A stretch of DNA of 64,000 nt from an uncultured delta proteobacterium (GCA_963769935.1 CAVYNY010000018.1:96001-160000), one strand, 5' to 3'. Shown: positions 9,255 through 27,379, numbered from the stretch's first letter. The notes: a model not told the origin generated them from the sequence alone. Made by a program: numbers and translations.

Positions 9255-9893
9255 ATGAAAGAAGCGTGTCGATGGGGATTGGTCCTCGGCATCCTGATGT
9301 CGGTCATCGTGGCAGGGTCGTCATCTGCCCAAGCGAATGCGGGCGCGCTGAAATGCGTCGGAATCTACTCGGAAACCGCGGCGGGACAGATCAGCTACAG
9401 AATCGGGACCGGCGACTGGGTGGTTATCAAGGTTGGGGATGTCATTCCCGCCGACGCACAGATTCGGGTAAACGTGGCCCAGGATTGGATCGAGCTGACG
9501 CCTTCCAACAATCCAGACGCTGTCTACAAAATCAGCGGAAGCAGCGCGGGAGACATCGTCCGGACGGTAGCGGACATACAGACGAACTCGCCGAAGGGGG
9601 TCAGCTTTCCGCAGCCAAGCGGAGGCACGCCGGATCCGAAATTCGCGAACAAACTGGTCGTCACTCAGTACAATTCGCGGCACGTTTATCGTCAGCCCGG
9701 GCAGCGAGGCAGGGACATTCAGTACGGTGATGTTCTGGAGGCCAACGGCACGGTGAGCATCATCGCTATCAACACGACCATCACCCTCATGAAAGCAGAC
9801 GGAACTACGATCAACGTCATTGGACCGCTGACGTTCAGCGTCCAGAAGGCGATTGCGGGCGAGAAGCTCTACAAGTTCTTGAATGCGCCGTGA
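9255..9893 (+). CDS. Secreted hypothetical protein with two related beta-rich (FecR-N-like) segments
   Basis: Signal peptide ending AQA; GQISYRIGTGDWVVIKVGDVI resembles HVYRQPGQRGRDIQYGDVL; GGAGG RBS. Confidence 0.7.
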   Translation: MKEACRWGLVLGILMSVIVAGSSSAQANAGALKCVGIYSETAAGQISYRIGTGDWVVIKVGDVIPADAQIRVNVAQDWIELTPSNNPDAVYKISGSSAGDIVRTVADIQTNSPKGVSFPQPSGGTPDPKFANKLVVTQYNSRHVYRQPGQRGRDIQYGDVLEANGTVSIIAINTTITLMKADGTTINVIGPLTFSVQKAIAGEKLYKFLNAP

Positions 9894-10057
9894 TACCCAC
9901 GGAAAGGAGGTGATGAAGGTCGGGCAAGAGAGAGCCCGGCAATTGGACCGGGCCCATGAGTATGGCCAACATGGTCTTTCTTCGACCGGCATCGCCGGTG
10001 GGGGAAGAAATCATCCACGGAAGATAAAAAGGGATCTATTTAGTTAGGAGGTTATTC

Positions 10058-11098
10058 ATGAAGCCAACAGCAAAAGTGCTTTTAGGGATCGCAATCGTCA
10101 TGCTCGTCCTGGGTGGGATGATGTTTGCAGGCGGGCTGAAGGAAGGCAGTTACGCATGGGGAGCGTCAATGTCGGAGAGCGGATTTCCGGCCATCACGCA
10201 TCGGCCGATTGTGGTCGGCTTCTCGCAGATCGGTTCTGAGAGTGAATGGCGAACAGCCGATACGGCGTCCGTCCAGCAGTCATTCAAGAACGATCCAGAG
10301 ATGAAACTGATCTACTCCGACGCACAGCAGAAGCAGGAGAATCAGATACAGGCGCTGCGGTCATTCGTCGCACGCAAGGTCGACGTTATCCTGTTCACGG
10401 CGCTGGTTGAGACCGGCTACCGCCCGGTTCTCGAGGAGGCAAAGGCCGCTCGCATTCCCGTCATCATGATCGACCGTGATGTCGCAAAGGAGGATCGTGA
10501 CCTGCGGCTCACAATCATGGGCTCAAATTTCGTGAAGGAGGGCGAGAAGGCCGCCACCTGGCTCGCGAACTACCTGAAGCAGCAGGGCAAAGACGATGGT
10601 ACCAAGACCATCAACATCGTCGAGCTCCAGGGGACCACCGGCTCGGCTCCCGCTATCGATCGGTACAACGGTTTCCGCAACATCATGAAAGATCATCCCA
10701 ACTGGACAATCACCCGTTCCCAGACCGGGAACTTCACGAGCTCAGAGGGCAAGGCGGTCATGGAAGCGTTTTTGAAGGCAGACAAAAACATCGACGTGCT
10801 CTATGCCCACAATGACCAGATGGCGCTCGGCGCGATCCAGGCCATTAAAGAAGCGGGATTGAAGCCCGGCAAAGACATCATCATCGTCTCTATTGACGCC
10901 GTCAAGGGAGCGTTCGAAGCTATGGTGAAGGGCGAGCTGAATGCCTCCATCGAGTGCAACCCGCTCCTCGGACCGCAGGCGCTTCAGGCCGTGCACGATC
11001 TGGCCGACGGGATGAAGCTCCCGGAAAGGATCTGGACGATCGAAGGTGTTTTCGATCAAACCAACGCTGCGGCAGCGCTGCCGACGCGTCAGTACTAG
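10058..11098 (+). CDS. ytfQ: Sugar ABC transporter substrate-binding protein, YtfQ-like (galactofuranose/arabinose)
   Basis: VGFSQIGSESEWR, SDAQQKQENQI, ELQGTTGSAPAIDR, AHNDQMALGAIQA and ECNPLLGP motifs. Confidence 0.85.
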   Translation: MKPTAKVLLGIAIVMLVLGGMMFAGGLKEGSYAWGASMSESGFPAITHRPIVVGFSQIGSESEWRTADTASVQQSFKNDPEMKLIYSDAQQKQENQIQALRSFVARKVDVILFTALVETGYRPVLEEAKAARIPVIMIDRDVAKEDRDLRLTIMGSNFVKEGEKAATWLANYLKQQGKDDGTKTINIVELQGTTGSAPAIDRYNGFRNIMKDHPNWTITRSQTGNFTSSEGKAVMEAFLKADKNIDVLYAHNDQMALGAIQAIKEAGLKPGKDIIIVSIDAVKGAFEAMVKGELNASIECNPLLGPQALQAVHDLADGMKLPERIWTIEGVFDQTNAAAALPTRQY

Positions 11099-11182
11099 CC
11101 GCATATTTGAGCGACACGCAACCTCTCCGGACCGCTTTGATCCTTCGAAGCGGCCCGGATTCAGGTGAGAGGAGGAAGTGAT

Positions 11183-12715
11183 ATGCCGGGCGGCGCCCCA
11201 ATTTTGGAAATGAAGGGCATTCACAAGTCCTTCCCGGGGGTCAAGGCGCTGTCGGGCGTGGATTTCCGCCTCTTCAAGGGCGAAGTGCACGCCGTCATGG
11301 GCCAGAACGGCGCCGGAAAATCCACCCTGGTAAAGGTAATGACCGGCGTGCACCGGCAGGATTCGGGCGAGCTGCTGCTTGAGGGCCGACCGATCAGGCC
11401 CGATTCTCCGTTGGCGGCGCAGCGGTTGGGAATCAGCACGGTCTATCAGGAAATCAACCTCTGCCCCAACCTATCGGTCGCGGAGAACATCTTCATCGGA
11501 AGGCAGCCGATAAAGCTCGGAAGAATCGACTGGAAAAAGATGAACGCACGGGCCCAGGAGCTCTTGCGTAGGCTAAATATCACCGTCAATGTGACGCAAG
11601 TCTTGTCGTCCTATTCAATCGCAATCCAGCAGATGGTCGCCATCGCCCGAGTGTTGGACATCTCATCGAAGATCCTGATTCTGGACGAGCCAACTTCCAG
11701 CTTGGATGAGAACGAGGTCGGGCTTCTTTTCAGCGTCATCCGCTCCTTGCGCGATGGTGGAATGGCGATTCTGTTCATTACCCACTTCCTCGATCAAACC
11801 TACCAGATTTCGGATCGCATTACGATATTGAAAAACGGAACTTTCGTCGGCGAATATGCGACCCAGAGTCTTCCCAAGCTCGATCTCATATCTAAGATGC
11901 TCGGCAAGGAATTGTCCGAGTTCGACTACGCTTCCAATGGCACACGAAAAAAGCGAAATCTCGCATTGGCTGCAGATGATGCTGTGCCGCTGTTGAGCGT
12001 CAAGGAGCTGGGGTTGCGGGGTTCTGTAACTCCGTTCAGTCTCGATCTGCACAAAGGCGAGGTGCTTGGATTCGCGGGACTGCTGGGCTCGGGCCGGACC
12101 GAGACAGCGCGGCTCATCTTCGGCGTCGAACGTGCGAGCCAGGGCGAGGTCTCCGTGCAAAGCAAGAGGATCGGCCTGAGCAGCCCGAGAAGCGCCATGC
12201 TCGCGGGAATGAGCTTCTGCCCCGAAGACCGAAAGAACGAGGGGATCTTTTCCGAGCTTTCCGTTCGAGAGAACATCATCCTGGCGCTGCAGGGAAGCCG
12301 AGGAATCCTCAAGCATCTCTCAGCCCAGAGACAGCTGGAAATTGCCGACGAGCTGATACGGTCCCTTGGGATCATCACACCGAGCGCAAACAGCGTGGCC
12401 GGCCAACTCAGCGGGGGAAACCAGCAGAAGGTGATGCTCGCGCGGTGGCTCGCTACCCGTCCCATCATCCTTATCCTCGACGAGCCGACGCGAGGAATCG
12501 ATGTCGGCGCCAAGCTGGAAGTCATGGCGCTGATTCTCAAGCTTAGCAACGAGGGAATGGGGGTCATCTTCATCTCGGCAGAATTTGAAGAGGTGCTTCG
12601 CTGCAGCGACCGAATCGCGATTCTGAAAGACCGCGCCAAAATCGCTGAGCTCCAGGGCGACGATATGACGGAGGCAAACATTTTGCGTGTCATCGCGGAG
12701 GAAACACAGGAATGA
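11183..12715 (+). CDS. ytfR: Sugar ABC transporter ATP-binding protein with two NBDs, YtfR-like
   Basis: GQNGAGKST, ILILDEPT, GLLGSGRTE, LSGGNQQK and DEPTRGIDVGAK motifs. Confidence 0.88.
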   Translation: MPGGAPILEMKGIHKSFPGVKALSGVDFRLFKGEVHAVMGQNGAGKSTLVKVMTGVHRQDSGELLLEGRPIRPDSPLAAQRLGISTVYQEINLCPNLSVAENIFIGRQPIKLGRIDWKKMNARAQELLRRLNITVNVTQVLSSYSIAIQQMVAIARVLDISSKILILDEPTSSLDENEVGLLFSVIRSLRDGGMAILFITHFLDQTYQISDRITILKNGTFVGEYATQSLPKLDLISKMLGKELSEFDYASNGTRKKRNLALAADDAVPLLSVKELGLRGSVTPFSLDLHKGEVLGFAGLLGSGRTETARLIFGVERASQGEVSVQSKRIGLSSPRSAMLAGMSFCPEDRKNEGIFSELSVRENIILALQGSRGILKHLSAQRQLEIADELIRSLGIITPSANSVAGQLSGGNQQKVMLARWLATRPIILILDEPTRGIDVGAKLEVMALILKLSNEGMGVIFISAEFEEVLRCSDRIAILKDRAKIAELQGDDMTEANILRVIAEETQE

Positions 12716-13761
12716 CATCGTTCCATCCCATACGTTCCGTATTCGCAGCACGGGATGCAAGCAAAAGCATGATCCTATGGTCCCTCGTAGCCCTGGGCTG
12801 CCTCTTCCTGTTCAACCTGTTTTTTACCCCTCACTTCTTCAGCCTCGAGATCAAAGAGGGACACCTATACGGCAACCTTATTGATATTCTAAAGAACGGC
12901 GCGCCGATCATGTTGCTTGCCATCGGGATGACACTTGTCATCGCCACTCGCGGCATCGATATCTCCGTGGGCTCTGTGGTCGCGATTTCCGCAGGTACCG
13001 TTGCAATTTTGCTCGGTGGTGATCTGGCGGGGCATGCAAAGACCCCCCTTGCGATCGCAATGGGCGCTGCTCTATTGATCTCGATTGCCGCCGGAGCGTG
13101 GAATGGGATGCTGGTCTCGCGAATCGGGATGCAGCCCATTATCGCCACGCTGATCTTGTTTGTCGCAGGACGCGGGATCGCAATGGTCTTTACGAATGCA
13201 ATGGTCATCTGGCTCTACGTAAAGCCCTTTGCGCTCCTGGGGCAGGGCTACGTCTTGGGCTTGCCCTTCTCCATCTACATCGTGGGTTTCGTGTTGATCG
13301 TAACGGCGCTCTTTACACGAAGAACAGCGCTCGGCCTCTTCATAGAAGCCGTAGGCATAAACCCTCAGGCTGCCCGCCTTAGCGGCATTAACTCCAAGAA
13401 CATTCTCTTGCTGGTTTACACCTTCAGTGGATTGTGCGCGGGGATATCCGGGTTGATTGTCTGCTCGACCGTCATGAGCGCGGATGGTAACAACGCGGGC
13501 AATCTCTTTGAGCTCGATGCCATTCTCGCCGTTGTGCTGGGCGGCACGTCGCTCAACGGCGGCAAGTTCACGCTCATCGGCAGCATGATCGGCGCTCTCA
13601 TCATCCAGACGCTGACAACCACCATCTATGCATTCAACGTTCCTCCTGAGATTTCCCAGGTGGTCAAGGCGTTAGTTGTCTACGCCGTATGCCTGCTGCA
13701 GTCAGCGGAATTCCGGGGTCGGGTTGCAGGATTGTTCGGCAGAAAGGCGGCTACGGCATGA
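12712..13761 (+). CDS. ytfT: Sugar ABC transporter permease, YtfT-like
   Basis: GMTLVIATRGIDISVGS, QPIIATL, ADGNNAG and ELDAILAVVLGG motifs. Confidence 0.85.
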   Translation: MTSFHPIRSVFAARDASKSMILWSLVALGCLFLFNLFFTPHFFSLEIKEGHLYGNLIDILKNGAPIMLLAIGMTLVIATRGIDISVGSVVAISAGTVAILLGGDLAGHAKTPLAIAMGAALLISIAAGAWNGMLVSRIGMQPIIATLILFVAGRGIAMVFTNAMVIWLYVKPFALLGQGYVLGLPFSIYIVGFVLIVTALFTRRTALGLFIEAVGINPQAARLSGINSKNILLLVYTFSGLCAGISGLIVCSTVMSADGNNAGNLFELDAILAVVLGGTSLNGGKFTLIGSMIGALIIQTLTTTIYAFNVPPEISQVVKALVVYAVCLLQSAEFRGRVAGLFGRKAATA

Positions 13762-14780
13762 AAAGGAAACCTCTTATTGATCCCCGCAACCTACCGGTTC
13801 TCGTAACCTTGGGGCTGTTCATCGTCATGTTCGGGCTCGGGTCGATTGCATTCACGAATTTCTTCTCGATGCAGAACTTCTTCAACCTCTTTATCAACAA
13901 TGCGTACCTGCTCGCTCTTGCGGTCGGCATGACCTTCGTCATCATATCGGGCGGCATCGATCTTTCGGTCGGCTCCATGCTTGCCCTATCAACGATGGTG
14001 TCGGCGAGCCTTGTTGAAAAGTCGCACATGAGTCCCGCCATCGTAATACCGATCGTCCTCTTGATGGGGGTAGTGTTCGGCCTCTTCATGGGCTACCTCA
14101 TCCAGGCCTTCAACATACCGCCCTTCATCGTTACCTTGGCCGGTCTGTACCTGTTCCGTGGGCTGTGTTACGTGGTCAGTATCGACACGATCGCCTTTAA
14201 AAACGATTTCTACCAAACAGTCGCGCGCACCCGCCTGGCAATTATCGGGGAGAACTTTCTTTCGCCGGGCGCAATTGTCGCGCTCGTTGCCGTCCTTGCA
14301 GGTTTGTTCGTTTCCCGCTATACGAAGTTCGGAAGGACCGTCTACGCAATCGGTGGCAACGAGCAGTCCGCAATTCTCATGGGTCTTCCAGTGGTGCGAA
14401 CGAAAATGGCGATTTACGCGGTGAGCGGCTTCTGCTCGGCGCTGGCCGGAATCATCTTCACCTTCTTCACGCTCTCCGGCTACGCGTTGGACGGAAAGGG
14501 GATGGAGCTAGACGCGATTGCGACCGTTGTCATCGGCGGCACCTTGTTGACCGGCGGGGCGGGCAGCATCTTAGGCTCGCTCTTGGGCGTGCTTGTATAT
14601 GGCACAATTCAGGTGCTCATTGTCTTCCAGGGAACGCTCAATTCCTGGTGGACGCGAATCGTGATCGGCTTCCTCTTTTTCGCGGTCTGCTTTATGCAGC
14701 GTATCTTCGAATCGGCGCGAGGCGCCGCCCCGAGAAGGGCGATCCCGAAAGCGTCGGAAAGCGTTTCTGCCGAAAGATAG
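13758..14780 (+). CDS. yjfF: Sugar ABC transporter permease, YjfF-like
   Basis: GMTFVIISGGIDLSVGS, YAIGGNEQSAILMGLPV and LNSWWTRI motifs; ATGA overlap with the upstream permease. Confidence 0.85.
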   Translation: MKRKPLIDPRNLPVLVTLGLFIVMFGLGSIAFTNFFSMQNFFNLFINNAYLLALAVGMTFVIISGGIDLSVGSMLALSTMVSASLVEKSHMSPAIVIPIVLLMGVVFGLFMGYLIQAFNIPPFIVTLAGLYLFRGLCYVVSIDTIAFKNDFYQTVARTRLAIIGENFLSPGAIVALVAVLAGLFVSRYTKFGRTVYAIGGNEQSAILMGLPVVRTKMAIYAVSGFCSALAGIIFTFFTLSGYALDGKGMELDAIATVVIGGTLLTGGAGSILGSLLGVLVYGTIQVLIVFQGTLNSWWTRIVIGFLFFAVCFMQRIFESARGAAPRRAIPKASESVSAER

Positions 14781-14847
14781 CATGGATCTCCCTTCTCCCT
14801 GGGCCGTACCGTCGCAGCGGGACTATTTCCGGATGGACAGTAACTTA

Positions 14848-15006
14848 TACAGAGAAGACCATAATTAAGTAGACATAGAAGATGTCCGGGTCAGCCACCA
14901 TGGTTTTAATAATTTCGAAATGGCATTCGGCGCAGGGTATTCGGTGCACGGTGAAGGTTTGTTTTCGATTTTGAATACATTTATGTCTATTAATTTATGC
15001 TCGGCT
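14848..15006 (+). repeat. ~160-bp dispersed MITE-like repeat A, copy 1
   Basis: Co-linear with 21344-21501; subterminal inverted repeat cataattaagtagacata / tatgtctattaatttatg. Confidence 0.88.
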
Positions 15007-15056
15007 TATTAATCCCCAATTGGGACTAAATTGGGATTACAGAAAGGAGGAGCGCA

Positions 15057-16064
15057 ATGGCAAAACGAACCACTATAATTTTACTGGTACTAATGCTGAT
15101 CGTCGGCGCGGCGCTGACGGACATTGGGGTTGCGAACGCCCAAGCCGCCGGCAAACAGTTTGAAGGCATCCGGATCGTTTTTTTCCCCGGCGGCAGTGAA
15201 GGGGGACCCTTTGCGTCGGTGGTTTACCGCGGCGCCAAAGCCGCTGAGGAAGATCTCGGCTGCATGGTGGATTACGTCTGGTCGGGTTGGCTGCCTGATA
15301 AAATGGTGGCGCAGTTCAAAGATGCGATTGCCAGGAGGCCGGACGGCATCGCCATCATGGGCCACCCGGGAGTTGCCGCTTATGCGCCGCTGGTGGACGA
15401 GGCGGAGTCCAAAGGCATTATTGTGACCAGCCAGAACACCACGCTGCCGGCGATCGAAGACAAATACAAGGCCCGGGGCTTTGGCTATGTCGGGCAGGAA
15501 CTCTATCCTTCCGGCGTCATGCTGGCCAAAGGTGCGGCTCAAAGAGCCGGTCTGAAAAAAGGTGACCGGGCCATGGTCTGGGGGCTGCTGGGGCAGGAAA
15601 CCCGGGGGCTGAGGACCAAAGGCTGTATCGATGCGCTCAAGCAGCTGGGAGTCACGGTCGATTATATCGAAATCTCGGATGCCGTTAACAGTGATGCGTC
15701 GCTGGGCACGCCGGTGGTTGCCAGCTATATCGCCACCCACCCGGATGTAAAACTGCTCATCACGGACCACGGTGCGTTGACCGCCACGCTGGGCACCTAC
15801 CTGAATGGCGCCCGCAAAAAACCGGGTGATATTTACACCGCCGGGTTTGATTTGAGTGCAGCCACCGCCGCGGCCATCACGGAAGGCTGGGTCGGCTGTG
15901 TTCTCGATCAGCAACCGTGGCTTCAAGGGTACCTGCCGATCCTGCAGATCTGCCTGACCAAAAAATACGGCTTTGCCGGTCTGCATATTGATACGGGCGC
16001 TGCCATCATCGATAAGACGAATATCGATTTTGTTGCGCCGCTGGCGGAAAAAGGCATCCGCTAA
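15057..16064 (+). CDS. Sugar/polyol ABC transporter substrate-binding protein
   Basis: Signal peptide; periplasmic-binding class I motifs GYVGQ, AGFD and DQQPWLQGY. Confidence 0.88.
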   Translation: MAKRTTIILLVLMLIVGAALTDIGVANAQAAGKQFEGIRIVFFPGGSEGGPFASVVYRGAKAAEEDLGCMVDYVWSGWLPDKMVAQFKDAIARRPDGIAIMGHPGVAAYAPLVDEAESKGIIVTSQNTTLPAIEDKYKARGFGYVGQELYPSGVMLAKGAAQRAGLKKGDRAMVWGLLGQETRGLRTKGCIDALKQLGVTVDYIEISDAVNSDASLGTPVVASYIATHPDVKLLITDHGALTATLGTYLNGARKKPGDIYTAGFDLSAATAAAITEGWVGCVLDQQPWLQGYLPILQICLTKKYGFAGLHIDTGAAIIDKTNIDFVAPLAEKGIR

Positions 16065-16075
16065 AAGGAGACCAG

Positions 16076-16855
16076 ATGGCCGCCGCGAATTCCGATCTTG
16101 CGTTGCTGTCCATGTCGAACATTTCAAAATCCTTTGGCGAGGTGGATGTGCTCACCAATGTCGATTTCGCGGTCGGCACGAATGAAATCGTCGGCCTGGT
16201 GGGCGACAACGGCGCCGGCAAATCCACCTTGATCAAAATCATCACCGGTGTGCATCCACCCACCGCCGGCGAGATTTACTTCAAAGGCGAGAAAATCACC
16301 CGGCATTCGGTCAAGCGCTCCCGCCGCCTGGGCATCGAAACCGTCTATCAGGAAAGGGCACTGGCCGATCAGCAGGCGCTCTGGCGCAATGTATTTGCCG
16401 GACGGGAGCTGACCTATAAATTCGGCTTTCTTAAAGTCAAACAGCAAAAAGCGGAAACCGACCGGCTGATCCGGGAGCATATGGGGTTTACCTCTAAAGC
16501 CATTGCCACGGATTCCATGGTTTTATCCCTGTCCGGCGGCGAGAAGCAGGGGATTGCTATCGGCCGCGCTCTTTACTTCGAAGCGGATTTAATCATTCTC
16601 GATGAGCCGACCATGGGCCTTTCCCTCTCCGAGACCCGCAAAGTGCTGGATTTTGTCCGCAACATCAAAAGGCAGGGAAAATCGGCCATCTTTATCAGCC
16701 ACAATATTTACTATGTATATCCGGTGGCCGACCGGTTCGTTATTCTGGACCGCGGCAGCGTGGCCGGAGAATTCTTGAAAGAAGACATTTCTCAGGAGGA
16801 TCTTGTTGAAAAGATGGTTCAGCTGGCACGCACGGGGAAATTGAGTCCGTATTGA
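16076..16855 (+). CDS. Sugar ABC transporter ATP-binding protein (single NBD)
   Basis: GDNGAGKST, LSGGEKQ, IILDEPT and ISH motifs. Confidence 0.92.
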   Translation: MAAANSDLALLSMSNISKSFGEVDVLTNVDFAVGTNEIVGLVGDNGAGKSTLIKIITGVHPPTAGEIYFKGEKITRHSVKRSRRLGIETVYQERALADQQALWRNVFAGRELTYKFGFLKVKQQKAETDRLIREHMGFTSKAIATDSMVLSLSGGEKQGIAIGRALYFEADLIILDEPTMGLSLSETRKVLDFVRNIKRQGKSAIFISHNIYYVYPVADRFVILDRGSVAGEFLKEDISQEDLVEKMVQLARTGKLSPY

Positions 16856-17024: not shown

Positions 17025-17984
17025 TTGAAAACAGCTACAATGCGACAGGCAAGGCTGGAGCTGAGTATCGCCGCCGTAATGGTGGGTATCTTTTTGCTGT
17101 TTATTGTCGGCAACCCCAGGGTGTTTACGCGATTTGATATCTACTACTCCTTCATGTCGACCATTCCGTTTTTCGGGATTATGGCCCTGGCCATGACGCC
17201 GGTGGTAACCCTGGGTGAGATGGATCTCTCCTTTCCCTCCGTGCTGGCCCTGTCCGCTCTTCTTTTCGGCAAGGTCTTTATGCTGACGGGAAACATCTGG
17301 CTGGCCGTCCTGGTGTGTCTGACAATCGGCCTGCTGGCCGGGGCCGTGAACGCTGTTCTGATCGTTCGGGTGGGAATACCATCACTGGTGGCCACCATCG
17401 GAACCATGTTCTTTTTTCGCGGCATGGTCAACGTCATCGCCCAGGGTAAGGGAATACCGCTCGTCGCAGCGAAAACGACCCTGGTTTACAGTTTGGCGGT
17501 CGGGCGAATCGGCGGCGTTGTCCCGGCCCAGGCGGTATGGATGCTGGTGCTGGGCATTGCCTTCTGGCTATTGATGAATCGTCACCGATTCGGCTCCCAC
17601 ATTCTTTTTGTCGGCGACAACATGGATAGCTCCCGCATGATGGGCATCAACGTTGAACGGGTGAAAACGATCGTCTTTATGCAGATGGGGTTTTTTGCGG
17701 CGTTTGCCGGGATATTATCCACGCTTGAAGTCACCTACTTCTGGCCGAGTCAGGGCCAGGGGTATCTGCTGACCACCCTGGCGGCCGTATTCATCGGGGG
17801 CACCTCCGTCTTCGGCGGAATGGGCACGATTTTCGGAACCTTTGCCGGCGCCGTCATCATCGGTTCACTGGAAGCCGGAATCATTGCCATCGGTCTGACC
17901 GGATTCTGGATTCAGCTGATATACGGTTTGATTATCATGGTCTCGGTGTCGATTTACGCGATCCTGTTGAAGCGCAAAGCATAG
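17025..17984 (+). CDS. Sugar ABC transporter permease (RbsC type)
   Basis: GEMDLS, IPSLVATIG and AAVFIGGTSVFGG motifs; hydrophobic. Confidence 0.9.
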   Translation: MKTATMRQARLELSIAAVMVGIFLLFIVGNPRVFTRFDIYYSFMSTIPFFGIMALAMTPVVTLGEMDLSFPSVLALSALLFGKVFMLTGNIWLAVLVCLTIGLLAGAVNAVLIVRVGIPSLVATIGTMFFFRGMVNVIAQGKGIPLVAAKTTLVYSLAVGRIGGVVPAQAVWMLVLGIAFWLLMNRHRFGSHILFVGDNMDSSRMMGINVERVKTIVFMQMGFFAAFAGILSTLEVTYFWPSQGQGYLLTTLAAVFIGGTSVFGGMGTIFGTFAGAVIIGSLEAGIIAIGLTGFWIQLIYGLIIMVSVSIYAILLKRKA

Positions 17985-18195: not shown

Positions 18196-19203
18196 ATGAA
18201 AGTCTTACGTTTGCACGCGGTCGGCGATTTACGACTGCATGATGAAAATGATCCGCTTCCCAATGACGATGAGAGTTTGCTGCGTATAACGGCAGTCGGG
18301 ATTTGCGGGTCCGATTTACATTGGTATGAGGAGGCCGGCATTGGCGATGCGCATTTAAAAAGACCGCTTGTTCTCGGCCACGAGTTTGCGGGAATCATTG
18401 ATTCCGGAGATCAGCAGGGCCGGATAGCAGCGGTTGATCCGGCCATTGCCTGCCGGCAATGCCGCTATTGTGAGGAGGGCAACCCCAACCTGTGTGACAA
18501 TGTGCGCTTTGCCGGCCACGATGCGGTGGATGGCGCCCTGCGTGAAAAAATTTGCTGGCCGAAATCCCTGGTGCACGTGTTGCCGGATGAATTTACCGCT
18601 GCCGACGGGGCGATGTTGGAACCGCTGGGAGTTGCCCTGCATGCGTTGTCTTTGGGGCATGTGCTGCCGGGAATGTCGGTCGGCATATTCGGGTGCGGGC
18701 CGATTGGTCTTTTGCTGGTTCAACTTGCGCGGGCGGCCGGCGCGGCTAAAATCATCGCCACCGACCGTTTAGCCAACCGTCTAGATGCGGCCAGGGCATT
18801 TGGTGCTTCCAGCATCATATTGGCGGCCGGCGGCCGGGAAAACGCGGAGGTGGAAGCCGCCGCCCCGGGCGACGGCGTCGATATCGCCTTTGAAGCCGCC
18901 GGCGACAACGAGGCCGTCGCAACAGCGATTCGGGCAACCCGGCCGGGCAGACAGGTTATTCTGATCGGGATTCCGGATGACGATCGAACGGCATTTCCAG
19001 CTTCGATTGCCCGGCGCAAAGGATTGACGCTAAAGCTGGTGCGAAGGATGAAACACACCTACCCGCTCGCCATTCGGATGGTGCAAAGCGGCGTTGTGGA
19101 CGTCCGGTCCATAGTAACACACCGCTTTCCATTATCCGAATACAAAACGGCCTTTGAAACTGCCAAAAAAAGAGAAGGCCTAAAGATTGTTATCGAACCA
19201 TAA
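18196..19203 (+). CDS. Zinc-binding polyol dehydrogenase (L-iditol/xylitol/arabitol-type MDR)
   Basis: GICGSDLH, LGHEF, CRQCRYCEEGNPNLC, MLEPL and GCGPIG motifs. Confidence 0.9.
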   Translation: MKVLRLHAVGDLRLHDENDPLPNDDESLLRITAVGICGSDLHWYEEAGIGDAHLKRPLVLGHEFAGIIDSGDQQGRIAAVDPAIACRQCRYCEEGNPNLCDNVRFAGHDAVDGALREKICWPKSLVHVLPDEFTAADGAMLEPLGVALHALSLGHVLPGMSVGIFGCGPIGLLLVQLARAAGAAKIIATDRLANRLDAARAFGASSIILAAGGRENAEVEAAAPGDGVDIAFEAAGDNEAVATAIRATRPGRQVILIGIPDDDRTAFPASIARRKGLTLKLVRRMKHTYPLAIRMVQSGVVDVRSIVTHRFPLSEYKTAFETAKKREGLKIVIEP

Positions 19204-19443
19204 TGCCGGAAGCAGATCTTCAAAAAACGAATGTCGAATGTCGATCGTCAAATGGAGGTATTCTGACTATTTTTAGGAATGACCGAGCGCAGTGAAACCA
19301 GCTTTCGAGATGCTGGGATTCGTCATTATGCTGTTCTAAGGTTTGCTGTTCAAACTTGGTGATGTTTCACATGAGCTCGGCCTCTGGCCGCGAGCGTTCA
19401 GTCTGATCAGAAAAAAAACTTTATAATTGGAGAGAAAAAGACG

Positions 19444-19595
19444 AATGGATTCTCATTTTAAAGAAAATAATTGGACAGGATCAACAGGATCGTTAGGATA
19501 ATGCGGCCTTCGGCCGAAAGGCCCCTCGCCGCAGGCGAAAAAATTCCTGATAATCCTGTTAATCCTGTCTAAATAAAATATAAGCCGAATCCATT
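19444..19595. repeat. Inverted-arm element with ~9-nt periodic arms and central GC hairpins
   Basis: aatggattc...gacaggatcaacaggatcgttaggat ... atcctgttaatcctgtc...gaatccatt; central ggccttcggccgaaaggcc. Confidence 0.75.
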
Positions 19596-19662
19596 CCACA
19601 TACCTTCATTGAAGTTTCACATGAGATCTCCGGGTTTTGGAAGCGGTCAGAAGGAGTAAATC

Positions 19663-21342
19663 ATGAGCACAAACAAATATGCCCTTGGCATCGATTTCGG
19701 CACCGAATCGGGACGCGCGGTTTTGGTGGAAACCAAGACCGGCCGGGAAATTGCCGCAGCCGTTTATTCCTATGAAAACGGCGTCATTGATGAAAAACTG
19801 CCGGTGGATGGTGCGCCGGTCCGGCTCGAACCCGAATGGGCGCTGCAGGACCCGCAAGACTATATTCGAACCTTCCGGCAGACGGTACCGGCGGTACTGT
19901 CCCAAGCCGGGGTTCATCCGGAGGATGTCATCGGCATCGGCATCGACTTTACCGCCTGCACCATGATGCCGGTCAAAAGCGACGGTACGCCCCTGTGCGA
20001 CCTGCCCGAATATCGACGCCACCCGCATGCCTGGGTCAAACTTTGGAAACACCACGCCGCCCAGCCGGAAGCGGATAAAATCAACGCCGCCGCTCGCCGC
20101 CTGGGCGAAGCCTGGCTTGACCGCTATGGCGGGAAAATTTCATCGGAATGGTTTTTTTCCAAAGCGCTGCAGATCCTGGACGAGGCGCCTGAAATCTATG
20201 CCGCCGCCGATCGTCTGATCGAAGCCGCCGACTGGGTGGTCTGGCAATTGACCGGCGTCGAAAAGCGCAATTCATGCACCGCCGGCTACAAAGCCATGTG
20301 GTCCAAACGGGAAGGGTACCCGCCGAACGCCTTTTTCAGGGAGCTGGACCCGCGCCTGGAAAAGATCGTCGACGAAAAAATGGCGCGCACGATTTACCCC
20401 ATCGGCGCCAGGGCCGGGGAACTCACCGCCCGGGCCGCCGCCTGGACCGGCCTCAAGGAGGGCACGGCGGTGGCCGTCGCCAATGTCGACGCCCATGTTT
20501 CGGTGCCGGCCGCCACGGTGACCGAACCCGGACGGATGGTGATGATTATGGGCACCAGTATCTGCCACATGTTGCTGGGCGAGGAAGAGCGGCGGGTGGA
20601 AGGGATGTGCGGGGTGGTCGAAGACGGTATCATTCCGGGGTTGTTCGGATATGAGGCCGGCCAATCCGGGGTCGGCGATATTTTTGCCTGGTTTGTAAAT
20701 AACGGCATTCCCGCCGCCTATCAGCGCGAGGCCCGCGAACGGGCCATGGATATTCATCAGCTGCTGGAAGAAAAGGCGGCCTTGCAAAAACCCGGTCAGC
20801 ACGGACTGTTGGCGCTGGATTGGTGGAACGGCAACCGCTCGGTGCTGGTGGACGTGGAACTCTCGGGCCTTTTAATCGGAGCGACCCTGGCCACCAAAGC
20901 CGAAGACATTTACCGGTCGCTGATTGAAGCGACGGCCTACGGAACCCGGGTCATCATCGAAGCCTTTGAAAAAAACGGTGTGCGGGTGGAAGAGCTCGTC
21001 GCCTGCGGCGGACTGCCGGAAAAAAACAAGCTGTTGATGCAAATATATGCCGATGTCAGTGGGCGTAATTTTAAAATTTCAGCCGCTAAACAAACGCCCG
21101 CCCTGGGGTCGGCGATGTTCGGGGCGGTGGCGGCCGGCCGCCGGGCCGGCGGGTATGACACCATTATTGAAGCCGCCCGCCGCATGGCCAGGTTAAAGGA
21201 TGAAGTGTACCGGCCGATCCCTGCCAATCGGAAAATTTATGATCGGCTGTTTGCCGATTACGTGCGCCTGCACGATTACTTCGGTCGCGGGGAAAACAAT
21301 GTGATGAAGACCCTCAAGCGGATACGGAACGAGGTGAGCTAA
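19663..21342 (+). CDS. araB: L-ribulokinase
   Basis: [48 protein letters not shown] and [13 protein letters not shown] motifs. Confidence 0.95.
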
Positions 21343-21343
21343 T

Positions 21344-21501
21344 TACAGAGAAGGCCATAATTAAGTAAACATAAAAGATGTCTCTGTCAGCCACCATGTT
21401 TTATTAATTTAGAAATGGCATTCGGCGCAGGGCTTTAGGCACAAGGTAAAGGTTTTTTTCGATTTTAAATACATCTTATGTCTAATAATTTATGCTCGGC
21501 T
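21344..21501 (+). repeat. ~160-bp dispersed MITE-like repeat A, copy 2
   Basis: Direct copy of 14848-15006 with scattered substitutions. Confidence 0.88.
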
Positions 21502-21574
21502 CAGTAAGCCCGCCCTGAAAAACAGCACATTGATGTAAGCCATTGGCCGTATTGATAGATTGAAAGTTATCCAC

Positions 21575-22639
21575 ATGTGCGAATTCCCTCACCGCCGCTT
21601 TAACCCGTTAACCGGTGAATGGATTCTGGTGTCGCCCCATCGCACCCAACGACCCTGGCAGGGGCAGCAGGAATCATCCGGCCGGCCGGATCTTCCGGAC
21701 TATGACCCGGACTGCTACTTGTGTCCGGGCAATTCACGGACGGGCGGCAGTCGCAACCCGGACTACCGGGATATATTCGTATTCGACAACGACTTTCCGG
21801 CGCTGCTGCCCGACCTCCCGGCCCGAAAAATGAATGCCGCCGGCTTGCTGAAAGCAACGCCAGAAAAGGGCCTTTGCCGGGTCATGTGTTTTTCGCCGCG
21901 CCACGATCTTTCCCTGCCGCAGATGGCGCCTGCCATGATTCAAAAAGTCATCGCCGAATGGGCCCGTCAATACCTTGAACTTGGCAAACTTGCGTGGATC
22001 AATCATATTCAGATCTTTGAAAACAAAGGCGCTATGATGGGCGCCAGCAACCCGCATCCCCATTGCCAGATTTGGGCCGGCCAAAGCATACCGGCCGAAC
22101 CGGCCAAAGAGCTGACGGCCTGCAGCCGCTATATGCAGGCCGAATCAGCGTGTTTGTTGTGTGATTATCTTGGGTTGGAACTTCAACGGGATGAACGGCT
22201 TGTTATGGAAAACGGCAGTTTTGTGGTTGTGGTTCCTTTTTGGGCGATCTGGCCGTATGAAACCCTGCTCATCTCACGTCGCCATGTCGCCGACCTGGCA
22301 GAATTGACGCCGGATGAACAGCGGGACCTGGCCGACATTTTGAAACGGTTGACCATACGCTATGACAACCTTTTTCAAACTTCTTTCCCGTATTCCATGG
22401 GCTGGCATCAATGTCCCACCGACGGGCGACCGTATCCGCAGCTGCACCTGCATGCGCACTTCTACCCGCCGCTGCTCAGATCGGCGACCGTGCGCAAATT
22501 TATGGTGGGCTTTGAAATGCTGGGGGAACCGCAGCGCGACATTACCGCGGAGACCGCCGCCCTGCAATTAAGACAGCTGCCGGAAGAGCATTTCCGCGCC
22601 GCATCGGCAAATGGGCCTCCGGCCGGCCGGCTCTCCTGA
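21575..22639 (+). CDS. galT: Galactose-1-phosphate uridylyltransferase
   Basis: [33 protein letters not shown] and [18 protein letters not shown] motifs. Confidence 0.96.
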
Positions 22640-22647
22640 AAGATTTT

Positions 22648-23796
22648 ATGCCACTGATTTCACAGACGGTCGCGTCCCATCGCACCCACTTTGACCGGCC
22701 CGCGACGCCCCGTATTTTCCAGGCGCCCGGCCGGGTCAATCTGGTCGGCGACCACACGGATTACAACGATGGATTTGTGCTGCCGGCCGCCATCGATCGG
22801 CAAATTGTGGTTGCGGCCACTCCCAGGCGGGACTCCCGGGTCAATGTGTATGCCCTGGATTTTGATCAATGGGATCATTTTGATTTGCAAAATGAAATTG
22901 CGCGGCTCGGCGAAAATTCCTGGGGCAACTATATCCGGGGCATGGCGTGGTCGCTGCTGCGGGAAGGCTGTCGATTAAGGGGCATGGATGCCGCCGTGTC
23001 CGGAAATATTCCCATCGGCGCCGGCCTGAGCTCATCGGCGGCAATTGAAGTGGCCGCCGGCTATGCCATGCTGCAACTGTCGGAACAAGAGTGCGATCGA
23101 ACGTGCCTGGCCCTGGCCGCCCAAAAAGCCGAAAACGACTTTGTGGGGATGCGCTGCGGTATTATGGATCAGTATATTTCATGTTTGGGGCGGCAAAATC
23201 ATGCGCTGCTCATCGACTGCCGCGACCTGAGGTATCGGGCCCTGCCGTTGCCGTCCGGGGCCCGGATCGTCATTGTCGACAGCGGCGTCCACCGTGGCCT
23301 GGTGGATATGGCGTACAACGCACGCCGCCTGGAATGTGAAGCCGCCGCCGCCCATTTCGGTGTCTGCGCGCTGCGGGACGTCAGCCTGCAGGCATTTAAG
23401 GCCCGGGCCCATGAATTGGACCCGACCGCACGCCGTCGAGCCCGGCATGTGATCACCGAAAACGATCGCACCGCAGCGGCGGCCGAAGCCTTAACGGCCG
23501 AAGATCTCAAGACCGTCGGCAGCTTGATGGTTGCTTCCCATGCCAGTTTGCGGGATGACTTTGAAGTCAGCTGCCCTGAACTCGATCTATTGGTGGAGAT
23601 TGCCCTGGAAGTGCAAGGCGTATACGGCGCCCGTCTGACCGGCGCCGGATTCGGGGGATCCATGGTGGCCCTGGTGCAGCCGGAAGCGGCGGCGGATTTA
23701 GCCGCCGCCGTCGCAGCGCGTTATGGAACCGTATCGGATCGCCGGGCAACCGTCTATGTCTGCAGGGCATCTGAGGGAGTGTCGGAAATTACATAA
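22648..23796 (+). CDS. galK: Galactokinase
   Basis: APGRVNLVGDHTDYNDG, PIGAGLSSSAA, CGIMDQ and GARLTGAGFGG motifs. Confidence 0.95.
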   Translation: MPLISQTVASHRTHFDRPATPRIFQAPGRVNLVGDHTDYNDGFVLPAAIDRQIVVAATPRRDSRVNVYALDFDQWDHFDLQNEIARLGENSWGNYIRGMAWSLLREGCRLRGMDAAVSGNIPIGAGLSSSAAIEVAAGYAMLQLSEQECDRTCLALAAQKAENDFVGMRCGIMDQYISCLGRQNHALLIDCRDLRYRALPLPSGARIVIVDSGVHRGLVDMAYNARRLECEAAAAHFGVCALRDVSLQAFKARAHELDPTARRRARHVITENDRTAAAAEALTAEDLKTVGSLMVASHASLRDDFEVSCPELDLLVEIALEVQGVYGARLTGAGFGGSMVALVQPEAAADLAAAVAARYGTVSDRRATVYVCRASEGVSEIT

Positions 23797-23852
23797 TTTG
23801 TGGTTTTTTTAACCAGCTAAAATGTTACCAAAATTAGAGAAAGGGACAAGCG

Positions 23853-25364
23853 ATGCAGGATTTAAAAAAATATGAAGTCTGGTTTTTGACCGGCAGTCAG
23901 CACCTTTACGGTGACGAAACCCTCCGGCAGGTTGCCGAACACGCCCGCACAATAGCCGCTGCCCTTTCTTCCTCCAAGGCGATCCCTGTCCGGGTGGTTT
24001 GCAAGCCGGTCCTGACCACGGCGGAAGCCATTTCGAAGCTCTGTCTTGAAGCCGCCGCCGAATCGGCCTGCGTCGGTCTGATCGCCTGGATGCACACATT
24101 TTCGCCGGCCAAGATGTGGATCGCGGGTTTAAAGGCGCTGCAAAAGCCCTTTCTGCATCTTCATACTCAGTACAACCGCGATATTCCCTGGTCGCAGATT
24201 GACATGGATTTCATGAACTTAAATCAGTCGGCCCACGGCGGCCGGGAGTTCGGGTACATCTGCACCCGCCTGGGCAAACAAAGAAAGGTGGTCGTCGGCC
24301 ACTGGCAGGACCCGACGGTCCAGGAAAAGCTGAATACCTGGATGCGGGCGGCCTGTGCGTGGCATGATGCGCAGCAAGGCAAAATCGCCCGCTTCGGGGA
24401 CAATATGCGGGATGTGGCCGTTACCGAAGGCGATAAGGTCGAAGCTCAACTGCGGCTTGGCTATGCGGTGAACGGCTACGGCGTCGGTGACTTGGCCGCC
24501 TACGTCAAAGCAATAGAGGATTCGGCCGTCGACCGGCTGATCGGCGAATATGCCGAGTTGTATGATATTGCTGGATCCGCCGCCAGGGGCGGCAGCCGTC
24601 ATCATGCGCTGCGGGAATCCGCCCGCATCGAACTGGGTATGCGGGCGTTTTTAAAAGAGGGCAACTTTAATGGGTTTACAACGACGTTCGAAGATTTGCA
24701 CGGGTTGGAACAATTGCCCGGTTTGGCAGTCCAAAGACTCATGGCCGACGGCTATGGCTTCGGCGCTGAAGGCGACTGGAAAACAGCCGCCTTGGTCAGA
24801 GCCCTGAAAGTGATGTCGATCGGTCTTGGGGGAGGGACATCTTTCATGGAAGACTACACCTATCACCTGGATCCGTCCGGGATGAAAGTGCTGGGCGCCC
24901 ATATGCTTGAAGTCTGCGCCAGCATCGCACAGGGCCGTGCCGCAATCGCCGTCCATCCGCTTTCAATCGGAGGCAAAGCCGATCCGGCGCGTCTGGTGTT
25001 TAACGTTGCCGTGGGTGATGCCCTGAATGCATCCATCATCGATTTGGGCGACCGTTTCCGCATGATTGTCAATGAGGTTGCGGTGGTTGCACCGGATGAA
25101 CCGCTGCCCAAATTACCGGTCGCGCGGGTCATGTGGGTGCCGAAACCCGATTTGGCAACTGCGGCCGGGGCCTGGATCTTGGCCGGCGGGGCTCATCACA
25201 CCGCCTTCAGTCAATCCGTAACAAGCGATCATCTGGAAGATTTTGCCGAAATGGCCCGGATTGAATTTTTGCTGATCAATGCGGAAACGAGATTATCCGA
25301 CTTTAAAAAGGAACTGCGTTGGAATGAGGCTTACTACCTTAATAGAGTCAAAGGACTCTATTAA
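23853..25364 (+). CDS. araA: L-arabinose isomerase
   Basis: [40 protein letters not shown] and SFMEDYTY motifs. Confidence 0.97.
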
Positions 25365-25371
25365 GGTGTCG

Positions 25372-25516
25372 GTTGTGGGTTGTAAGTTGTGTGTTGCATG
25401 TTGTGTGTTGCTTCATAGGATGACTTCAAATTTATATTCGCTGGGATCGTGAAATATAGAATTCAAATTGATATCATCCGAATCTCCAACAAACAACATC
25501 CAACTTACAACATGCA
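25372..25516. repeat. 7-nt periodic (GTTGxxx) inverted-arm element
   Basis: gttgtgg-gttgtaa-gttgtgt-gttgcat-gttgtgt-gttg ... caacaaa-caacatc-caactta-caacatg. Confidence 0.7.
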
Positions 25517-25586
25517 TTGAGCGGTACGACTCAATTTGAGTGCTATAAATTAAAGCATATGTGTTGCTAAAGAGGAGCCACAACGC

Positions 25587-26291
25587 ATGGATTTAAAGCA
25601 ATTGAAAGAATCGGTTTATCAGGCCAATATGGCGCTCAGCGCCAGCGGCCTGGTACTGTTTACCTTCGGCAATGTTTCCGGCGTTGATCGGGAGCGCCGC
25701 TTGCTGGTGATCAAGCCCAGCGGGGTGCCCTATGAGTCGCTGTCGCCCGATAACATGGTGTGCGTTTCACTTGAAAGCGGTGCTGTGATCGACGGCGATC
25801 TCAACCCCTCTTCGGACACCGCCACGCACTTGGCGCTTTACCGGGCGTTTACGGCTTGCGGCGGGATCGTCCATACGCATTCGGAATATGCCACGGCCTG
25901 CGCCCAGGCCCGCATTCCGATCCGCTGCATGGGAACCACCCAAGCCGACTACTTTTTCGGCGACATCCCGGTGACGCGCGCGATGACCCGGGCTGAAACC
26001 ATTGAAAACTATGAGAAAAACACCGGCCTGGTGATTACCGAGACTTTTAAAAAGTTGGACCCGCAGCAAATTCCGGCCGTGCTCGTTGCCAACCACGGTC
26101 CGTTTGTCTGGGGACCCAATCCGCAGGATGCGGTTCATCACGCCGTGGTCCTTGAATTTCTGGCGAAAATGGAACTGCACATCCGGCAGTTGAATCCGGA
26201 CGCTCCCCGACCCGCCCGGCACCTTATCGAAAAGCATTATCTGCGCAAGCATGGTGCCGCTGCCTACTATGGACAGCGTTCCCAAAAGTAA
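25587..26291 (+). CDS. araD: L-ribulose-5-phosphate 4-epimerase
   Basis: FTFGNVSG, IKPSGVPY, PSSDTATH, VHTHS and HYLRKHG...YYGQ motifs. Confidence 0.95.
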   Translation: MDLKQLKESVYQANMALSASGLVLFTFGNVSGVDRERRLLVIKPSGVPYESLSPDNMVCVSLESGAVIDGDLNPSSDTATHLALYRAFTACGGIVHTHSEYATACAQARIPIRCMGTTQADYFFGDIPVTRAMTRAETIENYEKNTGLVITETFKKLDPQQIPAVLVANHGPFVWGPNPQDAVHHAVVLEFLAKMELHIRQLNPDAPRPARHLIEKHYLRKHGAAAYYGQRSQK

Positions 26292-26320
26292 ATTTTTTCA
26301 AGAAATAGGGGAGAACAAAT

Positions 26321-27379
26321 ATGGGCCCCCAAAAGCTGACTTTTGGACAGACTCCTGATGGGAAGCGGGTTGATCTTTACACCTTGGCCAACGCCGGCGG
26401 CATGGAAGTAAAAATCACAACCTATGGTGCGGCGATCGTTTCGCTGGTGGTGCCGGATCGCAACGGCAAACCGGCAGATGTGGTTTTAGGTTATGACTCG
26501 CTGGAAGACTACATCGCAGGGGGATATTACTTCGGCTGCATTGCCGGACGCTATGCCAATCGAATCGCCGGCGGCAAGTTTACATTATACGGTACGGAAT
26601 ACCGGCTGGCCGCCAATGACGGCGACAACCATTTGCACGGCGGCCTGCGCGGCTTCGACAAAATGGTGTGGCAGGCCCACGAATTTGAAGACAACGCCGA
26701 CATGGGCTTAAAGTTTTCTTATTTGAGCCCGGGCGGCGAGGAAGGCTACCCCGGAAACCTGGCGTGCACCGTAAGTTATACCCTCGGCGCAGCCAACGAG
26801 CTCAAAATCGATTACCATGCCACCGCCGATGCACCGACGATCGTAAATTTGACCCAGCATACCTATTTCAATCTGGCCGGCGCCGGGTCCGGTGATATTT
26901 TAAATCATGAGCTGATGATCAATGCCGATCGGTTTACACCGGTTGACAACCGTCTGATACCAACCGGCGAATTAAGAAGCGTCCAGCATACCCCGTTTGA
27001 CTTTACCCGGCCCACAGCCATCGGCGCCCGCATCGATCATGACGACCAGCAGCTGCTTTTTGGAAACGGCTACGACCACAACTGGGTCTTAAACAAAGAT
27101 GGGGACGGCCCGTGTCTGGCGGCCAGGGCCTTGGAACGAAATTCCGGGCGCACGCTGGAAGTGTACACGACCCATCCCGGCCTTCAGTTTTATTCCGGCA
27201 ACTTTCCGGATAACCGGATTGCCGCCAAAGCCGGTCAAATATACCCGCATCGCGGCGGCTTTTGCCTGGAAACCCAGCATTTTCCGGACTCGCCGCACCG
27301 GCCGGATTTTCCGTCCACGGTACTTGACCCCGGAGCGGAATATGAACACACAACCATCTATAAGTTTACAGCCGGATGA
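26321..27379 (+). CDS. galM: Aldose 1-epimerase (galactose mutarotase)
   Basis: GRYANRI, NHLHGG, GYPGNL, HTYFNL, GYDHN and CLETQHFPD motifs. Confidence 0.95.
   Translation: MGPQKLTFGQTPDGKRVDLYTLANAGGMEVKITTYGAAIVSLVVPDRNGKPADVVLGYDSLEDYIAGGYYFGCIAGRYANRIAGGKFTLYGTEYRLAANDGDNHLHGGLRGFDKMVWQAHEFEDNADMGLKFSYLSPGGEEGYPGNLACTVSYTLGAANELKIDYHATADAPTIVNLTQHTYFNLAGAGSGDILNHELMINADRFTPVDNRLIPTGELRSVQHTPFDFTRPTAIGARIDHDDQQLLFGNGYDHNWVLNKDGDGPCLAARALERNSGRTLEVYTTHPGLQFYSGNFPDNRIAAKAGQIYPHRGGFCLETQHFPDSPHRPDFPSTVLDPGAEYEHTTIYKFTAG

Follow-up and report, generated by a model that had tools for sequence, protein, structure and literature searches.

A cluster of genes for the use of L-arabinose and galactose lies on the same contig as sulfate-reduction genes in an uncultured delta proteobacterium (GCA_963769935.1, referred to as G000), and the locus raises the question of whether a sulfate reducer feeds on these sugars or whether unrelated DNA was joined in assembly. 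The window analyzed here is a 64-kb stretch, G000:C18:96001–160000, of an 8.0-Mb, 41-contig genome that is rated 96.68% complete. We regard it as reasonably probable that the cluster is native and intact, and that its host, a Desulfobacterales sulfate reducer, imports free L-arabinose, and probably also galactose and a pentitol, and oxidizes it with sulfate. Arabinose use is likely from the gene content, and from the same source we infer its coupling to sulfate reduction. The enzymes are textbook ones, the host is unexpected and the regulator is unstudied.

Provenance of the cluster and affiliation of its host

Genes were called from a list of open reading frames (ORFs) and two family scans (NCBIfam and Pfam) over the 50–51 ORFs of the window (Table 1). 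The first-pass annotation had listed araB, araA, araD, galT, galK, galM, a polyol dehydrogenase and two sugar ABC systems as co-directional and apparently intact, about 23 kb from the dsr operon. This inventory holds: all of these genes are on the + strand without internal stops, and 22.5 kb separates galM from the dsr genes. The ara and gal genes are interleaved, as had been proposed, with galT-galK standing between araB and araA. The cluster had been taken to begin at position 9255, and a protein of 212 amino acids (aa) does start there, but the regulator genes at 5619–8805 are also part of the unit. AraB, GalT, GalK and AraA pass equivalog cut-offs, and AraD and GalM pass subfamily cut-offs only. 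Gaps of 170–460 bp that carry repeats break up the cluster.

The dsrP, dsrO, dsrJ, dsrK and dsrM genes of the window each score over their cut-offs and are accompanied by an RsbRD_N/DsrT-type gene. The suggestion that dsrAB and dsrD be sought elsewhere in the genome proved fruitful, as dsrA and dsrB, both over their cut-offs, and then dsrD are located at ∼286–288 kb of the contig that carries the sugar cluster. The aprA and acsB/cdhC genes score over cut-offs on other contigs, and adjoining aprA are ORFs of fitting size and look, which may be aprB, qmoABC and sat. By its gene content (dsrAB-dsrD, dsrTMKJOP, aprA and acsB) the host is a genuine sulfate reducer. The 90% clusters of DsrB and DsrP contain members named Desulfobacterales bacterium, and one member of the former is labeled Hyphomicrobiales. 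One protein in the 90% cluster of the histidine kinase encoded upstream of the sugar genes takes its name from the Olavius Delta 1 symbiont, which belongs to the Sva0081 clade (PMC7163020); judged solely by this kinase cluster, G000 would be placed near that clade.

A DNA search of all 23 genomes of the genus (G000 and 22 relatives), together with ORF comparison, identified clusters with araB and araD in six of the 22 relatives (G001, G004, G007, G009, G010 and G018), some of them split over contigs. Their cluster orthologues are 73–92% identical to those of G000, and their second ABC system shows 84–95% protein identity. The dsrA gene is present in 18 of the 22 relatives, including four of the six carriers. 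AraA is encoded in two of the 22, and in the other four carriers the gene between galK and araD encodes a FucI-like protein (PF02952). The cluster is native and occurs in a minority of relatives, and the trait is not peculiar to the G000 contig. It is rare in the order: among 401 genomes drawn from it (12 of them genus members, none of these the six carriers), five matched the ribulokinase model at E ≤ 1e-100, four of them over the cut-off, G000 included. All four genomes of other families with araB also contain dsrA. One of them, G399, has dsrA and an araB-galK-araD-isomerase-galM cluster on a single contig, G025 has the order ADH-araB-galT-galK-isomerase-galM, and G301 has araA-araB-gafABCD with an AraB of a different type. 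In a phylum-level draw the model was matched by three of 351 genomes, and G000 alone was over the cut-off. The idea that galT-galK is an insertion found only in G000, which came from G010 and G018, was rejected, as galK follows araB in G399 and four genomes of the genus, and the order araB-galT-galK recurs in G025.

That the cluster is a chimeric join, or a contaminant from a sugar-fermenting organism, is very improbable. Such an origin would fit the 5.42% contamination of the genome, the GC content of the cluster (55.5% versus 51.3 ± 2.6), its tetranucleotide distance (90th percentile of 422 windows), and the nearest outside relatives of its products, which are from Spirochaetia (gaf), Chloroflexota (AraB) and, among the matches listed, Ignavibacteria, Planctomycetes and Bacteroidota (AraA). 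It is opposed by the orthologues in six same-genus genomes and by the repeats inside the cluster: five of nine intergenic gaps tested contain repeats with further copies in other parts of G000 (as many as 16, spread over 12 contigs), and repeats of the cluster recur on 4–12 contigs of this genome. A 3188-nt contig of the separately assembled run X1, which may be the source sample, spans 25524–28711 with two differences and joins araD-galM to a pit gene in genus-typical DNA. Rightward of the cluster, the DNA has matches in 19 of the 22 relatives. The linkage of the sugar cluster to the dsr region, for which a check had been advised, is probably real, because related clusters occur in relatives and genome-wide repeats lie inside the cluster.

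By its composition and affinities the cluster is a mosaic, GC-rich and mildly atypical. The nearest named relative of YtfT, 88% identical, is from Spirochaetia, the look-alike clusters of the 212-aa protein are mostly from Spirochaetota (spirochaete clusters scoring 0.98 and 0.96), and the same-genus gaf genes are just 48–62% identical to those of G000, so the gaf module looks recently replaced. In a quick AraB tree (39 rows from loci already collected, midpoint-rooted, with long branches), nine Desulfobacterales proteins form one clade (SH-aLRT 93) within a group that holds three Chloroflexota proteins (support 100). The best outside relatives of AraA, among the matches listed, are 58–74% identical and come from many phyla; no record titled Desulfobacterota is among the best 80, and a donor is not indicated.

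Table 1. Features of the sugar-use unit and the dsr genes in the window
Feature	Position	Strand	Remarks
Soluble histidine kinase	5619..7490	-	CUT2 ATPase-like N-terminal domain, PAS-like, HisKA, HATPase_c
Sigma-54 response regulator	7462..8805	-	REC, AAA+ with GAYTGA, Fis-type HTH
Two overlapping inverted repeats TTACACA / TGTGTAA	8828..8854		Conserved in G018; candidate activator binding site, putative function
Sigma-54 -24/-12 promoter consensus	9080..9094	+	Identical in G018
212-aa protein	9255..9893	+	Leads operon; hydrophobic N-terminus, no Pfam family
GafA/YtfQ-like furanose-sugar binding protein	10058..11098	+	
GafB/YtfR-like two-domain ABC ATPase	11165..12715	+	
GafC/YtfT-like permease	12712..13761	+	
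GafD/YjfF permease	13773..14780	+	Above equivalog cut-off
Second sugar-binding protein (Peripla_BP_4)	15057..16064	+	87–89% identical in six relatives
Single-domain sugar ABC ATPase	16076..16855	+	
Second-system permease	17025..17984	+	
Zn-dependent polyol dehydrogenase	18196..19203	+	Sorbitol/L-iditol/L-arabinitol dehydrogenase family
Dispersed intergenic repeat	19360..19630		16 further copies on 12 contigs of G000, many in relatives
araB, L-ribulokinase	19663..21342	+	TIGR01234, 777.5 versus cut-off 583
galT, galactose-1-phosphate uridylyltransferase	21575..22639	+	TIGR00209, 486 versus cut-off 102
galK, galactokinase	22648..23796	+	TIGR00131, 379.5 versus cut-off 227
araA, L-arabinose isomerase	23853..25364	+	NF002795, 825.8 versus cut-off 622
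araD, L-ribulose-5-phosphate 4-epimerase	25587..26291	+	NF006047, 337 versus 257; under TIGR00760 (325 versus 389)
galM, aldose 1-epimerase	26321..27379	+	NF008277, 328 versus 240; under TIGR02636 (343 versus 398)
dsrT-M-K-J-O-P	49926..55792	-	Context, outside the sugar unit

Import and breakdown of the sugars

Among solved structures, the first binding protein is closest to Gaf proteins from M. smegmatis, Shewanella and E. coli (6hb0/6hbd/6hyh, 5ocp, 2vk2), and the genes that follow it complete a four-gene GafABCD/YtfQRT-YjfF layout with GafA as the nearest solved relative. YjfF scores 429.5 versus an equivalog cut-off of 363. PMC10191376 reports that D-galactofuranose and L-arabinofuranose are both ligands of the Gaf proteins from E. 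coli and M. smegmatis, and that a bulky phenylalanine (F40) may limit the Shewanella protein to arabinose by excluding galactofuranose. G000 GafA has an aspartate at the site aligned to Shewanella F40, provided that the numbering corresponds to that of this paper. Because the first importer is GafABCD-like, of a family that binds both sugars, the mixing of ara and gal genes would be explained: one importer would deliver both L-arabinofuranose and D-galactofuranose. The four-gene layout is alike in E. coli, M. smegmatis and Shewanella ANA-3, and Gaf importers are often linked to arabinose catabolic genes (PMC10191376), as in G000. Unlike the known systems, the G000 gaf genes are preceded by the spirochaete-type 212-aa gene, three of the four subunits fall under the E. 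coli-based cut-offs, and the module faces a sigma-54 kinase-activator pair, whereas GalR, GalS or AraC accompany known Gaf systems. For the second binding protein no solved relative was found at the thresholds used. About 14 other CUT2 permease loci exist in G000 (CUT2 permease matches in 16 ten-kb bins).

The arabinose route is complete. AraA aligns over its full length with solved L-arabinose isomerases (best 4r1o, E 5e-215), and the AraA, AraB and AraD orthologues are intact and exceed NF002795, TIGR01234 and NF006047, TIGR00760 not being reached by AraD. GalM would interconvert the anomers of the imported sugars, AraA, AraB and AraD would yield D-xylulose-5-phosphate, and transketolase and transaldolase would lead into glycolysis. 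The last two enzymes, which the first-pass annotation had recommended looking for, were found as an intact two-subunit transketolase on contig C22 (284 + 315 aa) and two TAL_FSA transaldolase-family genes. Also present are rpe, rpiA, rpiB, pgi, three zwf genes, a pfk homologue, fbaB, tpi, gap, pgk and gpmA. The polyol dehydrogenase gene precedes araB in G018 and G025 and is near araB in an Anaerolineaceae locus (L050); from its family and this position, the enzyme likely turns a pentitol into L-ribulose. The xylA, xylB and xylose-type ABC genes of G000 make a xylose route probable, and xylA, xylB and the many CUT2 loci show a broad sugar repertoire. At C30:77185-90854, xylA is accompanied by two sugar ABC sets and an inosose-dehydratase/oxidoreductase-like pair; xylB is located at C20:178336-179895. 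The E. coli-type pgm on C13 has lost a central section and could be a genuine pseudogene, and an intact 461-aa CpsG-like gene on C4 is 27% identical to pgm.

The enzymes AraA, AraB and AraD are the same as in the L-arabinose pathways of E. coli and Bacillus/Geobacillus. G000 differs from the known ara systems in its dsrABD/dsrT sulfate-reducer host, in the galT-galK genes between araB and araA, and in having no AraC or AraR. A further difference is that four same-genus and two other-family relatives carry the FucI-like protein at AraA's place. AraA stands there in G000, G010 and G018, and the FucI-like protein, of 493 aa, in G001 (L182:10482-11963), G004, G007, G009, G025 and G399. It matches no NCBIfam family at 1e-25 and no solved relative at 1e-5. 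Because of this swap, the uncharacterized protein is a candidate for a second kind of L-arabinose isomerase. In four loci of relatives, araB is separated from the ABC genes by two to three UroD/methyltransferase-family genes (L182:3851-7183, L185:5965-8211, L186:8537-10783 and L276:14286-16242), which suggests the use of methylated sugars.

The proposal that the organism scavenges monomers derived from arabinogalactan and pectin is consistent with the results as far as free monomers are concerned: searches of G000 with GH43, GH51, GH42 and GH36 models and with LacZ and GH4 queries gave no match, so it would take up free monomers. A GH4 gene follows galM or araD in G001, G007, G010 and G018, and the G001 protein passes the α-galactosidase cut-off (PRK15076).

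Galactose breakdown in G000 is possible, and it is uncertain because the canonical galE is missing. The Leloir pathway is represented as known by intact GalM, GalK and GalT. galE had been noted as absent from the window, in agreement with our scan of its ORFs, and the search for it elsewhere was not successful, since no canonical GalE is in the G000 assembly (the best TIGR01179 score is 175 versus a cut-off of 262). The description of the locus as a Leloir cluster therefore stands for galT, galK and galM and fails for galE. The canonical gene is present in 11 of the 23 genus genomes; in G020 and G017 it lies between a sat-like gene and a sigma-54 activator, and at C11:627268-627850 of G000 the flanks align with G020 at 77% and galE is absent. 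Galactose would thus pass through GalK and GalT and then require a non-canonical epimerase. The best stand-in, C6:2096-3151, has UDP-glucose 4-epimerase (4zrm, E 2.7e-63) as its fourth-best solved relative, adjoins another epimerase/dehydratase gene, and resembles both UDP-GlcNAc-type epimerases and Thermotoga-type GalE.

Oxidation with sulfate and competing explanations

In the proposed pathway, pyruvate would be converted to acetyl-CoA and oxidized by the Wood–Ljungdahl route, and the electrons would be passed to Apr/Qmo and to DsrAB/DsrMKJOP. PMC10564751 names xylose, fructose and glucose as growth substrates of some sulfate reducers and describes an acidobacterium in which pectin use is coupled to sulfate reduction, so the combination of sugars with sulfate belongs to a known kind. 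The sugar-using sulfate reducers covered there combine sugar oxidation genes with the Dsr pathway, as does G000; here the host belongs to Desulfobacterales, the sugars are L-arabinose and galactose, and monomers only would be used, with five glycosidase families and LacZ not found. A literature search, with most subscription papers outside its reach, found no description of an arabinose pathway in Desulfobacterales, and the accessible parts of PMC11129491, PMC10443332 and PMC6365825 contain nothing on this pairing of host and pathway or on the kinase. A hint of expression came from two sediment metatranscriptomes of one study, the check that had been proposed earlier. Contigs with at least 88% identity cover 30/30 and 29/30 bins of 9500–29400, with long pieces over gafA-C, galT, galK and araA (about 88–97% identical).

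Several observations weigh against sugar oxidation by this organism. The metatranscriptome matches are contigs rather than reads, come from related strains and a single study, and are without a DNA carry-over control. None of the short-read contigs spans the distance from the cluster to dsr, the genome has the contamination given above, and the dsrA search was without a match in the cluster carriers G007 and G009 (82% and 92% complete). The YtfQ, YtfR and YtfT subunits score under their equivalog cut-offs (330.7 versus 510, 674.7 versus 850 and 302.5 versus 535, respectively). Enolase (C11:618240-619507), pyruvate kinase (C10:682451-683884), a second transketolase (C35:119378-121430) and the E. 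coli-type pgm (C13:263244-264033) are split; the split enolase suggests indel errors in the assembly. For galactose, the missing GalE and the G000 site with aligned flanks and no galE belong on the same side.

The sugars might instead be fermented or channeled as pentose and hexose phosphates into biomass, with H2 or acetate driving sulfate reduction. Electron flow cannot be assigned from gene content, H2 and CO oxidation is described for the Delta1 symbionts of the Sva0081 clade (PMC7163020), and Desulfoconcordia is described with expressed carbohydrate transporters, arabinose and galactose not being mentioned in the main text (PMC13548325). We nevertheless consider this alternative unlikely, as a biosynthetic supplement would hardly need two importers with an inducible-type promoter, all three steps of the arabinose route and a xylose route in parallel, and the respiratory set looks complete. 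A narrower alternative, doubtful though less so, is that arabinose is the only fuel and the galactose genes serve salvage, GalK and GalT making UDP-galactose for surface glycans after loss of the canonical galE. The absence of this gene fits such a role, as do the neighborhood of the C6 stand-in and its resemblance to UDP-GlcNAc-type epimerases, and the clusters of G001, G004, G007 and G009 (L182, L184, L185 and L187), in which galK is kept and no galT over the cut-off was found in the genomes. Against salvage are the closeness of the C6 protein to 4zrm, the α-galactosidase in a relative's cluster, the same ADH-araB-galT-galK order in G025 of another family, and the chance that galE sits in unassembled DNA.

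Desulfobacterales are usually modeled as terminal oxidizers of fermentation products. With an arabinose route that recurs in the order and is apparently expressed, some of them would compete directly with fermenters for plant sugars, which would change the routing of carbon to sulfide in sediments, and arabinose could be a selective substrate for enriching the uncultured lineage. A bolder reading, which we hold to be rather improbable, is that an uncultured Desulfobacterales lineage, probably in or beside Sva0081, oxidizes plant pentoses to CO2 with sulfate, with a transporter-docked soluble kinase as the switch. If true, the fermenter step of the anaerobic food chain would be bypassed in vegetated sediments, and the transporter itself would be the receptor.

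Sigma-54 control and the kinase with an ATPase-like domain

The ara and gal genes had been thought to be under sigma-54 control rather than that of AraC or GalR. No AraC or LacI family gene is among the window ORFs scanned, in line with the latter part of the claim. Sigma-54 control is well supported for the first genes, which follow an exact TGGCAC-N5-TTGC element (two exact matches in the window versus 0.19 expected by chance); both this box and the inverted repeats upstream are identical in G018, and sigma-70 and terminator scans were near chance. For the ara/gal enzymes themselves it is uncertain, as the second ABC system of G007, G009, G010 and G018 is preceded by a gene that its N-terminal motif and a shared best match mark as LacI-type. 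The sigma-54 two-component set is complete, with a His-box kinase, a REC-AAA+-HTH activator and the -24/-12 promoter.

The kinase has 623 aa, and its N-terminal domain is like the first half of CUT2 ATPases, with 28% identity to the neighboring YtfR. Its structure model has a mean predicted local distance difference test (pLDDT) score of 79 and no membrane segment, and the solved matches of the model are either ABC ATPases or kinases, none spanning both. A search returned 642 matches among 7996 candidates. In the best 120 of the 642, ABC_tran and both kinase domains co-occur in 119, and the names include Pseudodesulfovibrio, Desulfomarina, KSB3 and Spirochaetales. In an alignment of 114 sequences, His412 of the His box is invariant (114/114), Walker A and the Q-loop are kept, and the His switch is present in 105; nucleotide binding is plausible because these three motifs are conserved. 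The domain has no LSGGQ signature and a replaced D-loop, and is thus without the full motif set of active ABC ATPases. The site of the Walker-B glutamate is alanine in G000 (Glu in 86 and Ala in 23 of the 114). The literature search, limited as above in respect of subscription papers, found no publication on a kinase with an ABC-ATPase domain.

The family occurs in 3/401 genomes of the order and in 11/251 genomes of a spirochaete-centered draw. We compiled 21 loci from 15 of the 17 places in that draw (in the two left out only the ATPase part matched), three from a KSB3 genome and three already collected. A CUT2 permease or binding protein is near 15 of these 21 loci versus one of 78 plain-kinase control loci, which are unmatched for taxon or length, and six of the 21 have no such match; these two points detract from the association. 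The controls came from a metagenome scan that caught a generic kinase motif in 79 loci, one of which encodes a full-length family member. In 13 of 18 fetched loci the kinase-activator pair has an outward sigma-54 box no more than 700 bases away, versus 0.32 expected. PstSCAB-PhoU-PhoR and the SLC5-fused CbrA and CrbS are examples of transporter-coupled kinases. In ABC importers the segment around the Q-loop faces the permease, and this segment is conserved in the kinase. The conserved genomic link of kinase and transporter is also a feature of Bce-like systems, and in BceAB-BceS a kinase without its own sensor is next to the transporter for its likely signal, as in G000. Unlike transporter-coupled systems, the G000 kinase is soluble, its input domain is a copy of the importer's first ATPase domain, and its output is a sigma-54 activator.

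The simplest mechanism that we infer is docking on permeases. A kinase dimer would place its two ATPase-like domains on the Gaf permease pair instead of the real ATPase, read the sugar-loaded binding protein and phosphorylate the sigma-54 activator, which would then fire the promoter at 9080. A different arrangement, possible if not favored, would have the pair control only the hyp-gafABCD module, the ATPase-like domain responding to a signal in the cytoplasm (ATP/ADP or a partner protein) and making no contact with the permease, and the ara/gal genes using separate promoters. The conserved nucleotide-binding motifs are compatible with such sensing, the repeat-bearing gaps with separate promoters, and in G018 the pair and the gafABCD genes that it faces share a contig, the LacI-type gene and the second ABC system behind it being on another. 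Conversely, the family stays beside CUT2 permeases across phyla, the Q-loop segment is conserved, the G000 cluster has no other regulator gene, and in a locus of the spirochaete-centered draw (L222:7161-15629 of G558), by sequence inspection, the activator-kinase pair is directly followed by lacI-araB-araD-araA-like genes. Since the G000 locus connects these kinases to a binding protein whose family has known ligands, docking is directly testable.

Several minor observations concern the surroundings of these genes. A 96% identical kinase is encoded at a contig end of G022 (L098/L179, G022:C125), with different downstream genes; araA was not found in that genome. Short dispersed intergenic repeats, possibly small mobile elements, are at 14845–15015, 16880–16990, 18000–18165, 19220–19630 and 21343–21510, have 1–16 other copies in G000, and several are frequent in relatives. 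The ORFs at 4712–5089, 30882–31853, 32568–33047, 35791–36264 and 63154–63768 have no Pfam family over the cut-off, the second of them with a weak Mem_trans match. A second sigma-54 activator is encoded at 34224–35621 and is followed by the other exact -24/-12 box of the window (35792–35806), which precedes a REC/CheW/CheA/MCP chemosensory cluster (36395–48706) reaching up to dsrP.

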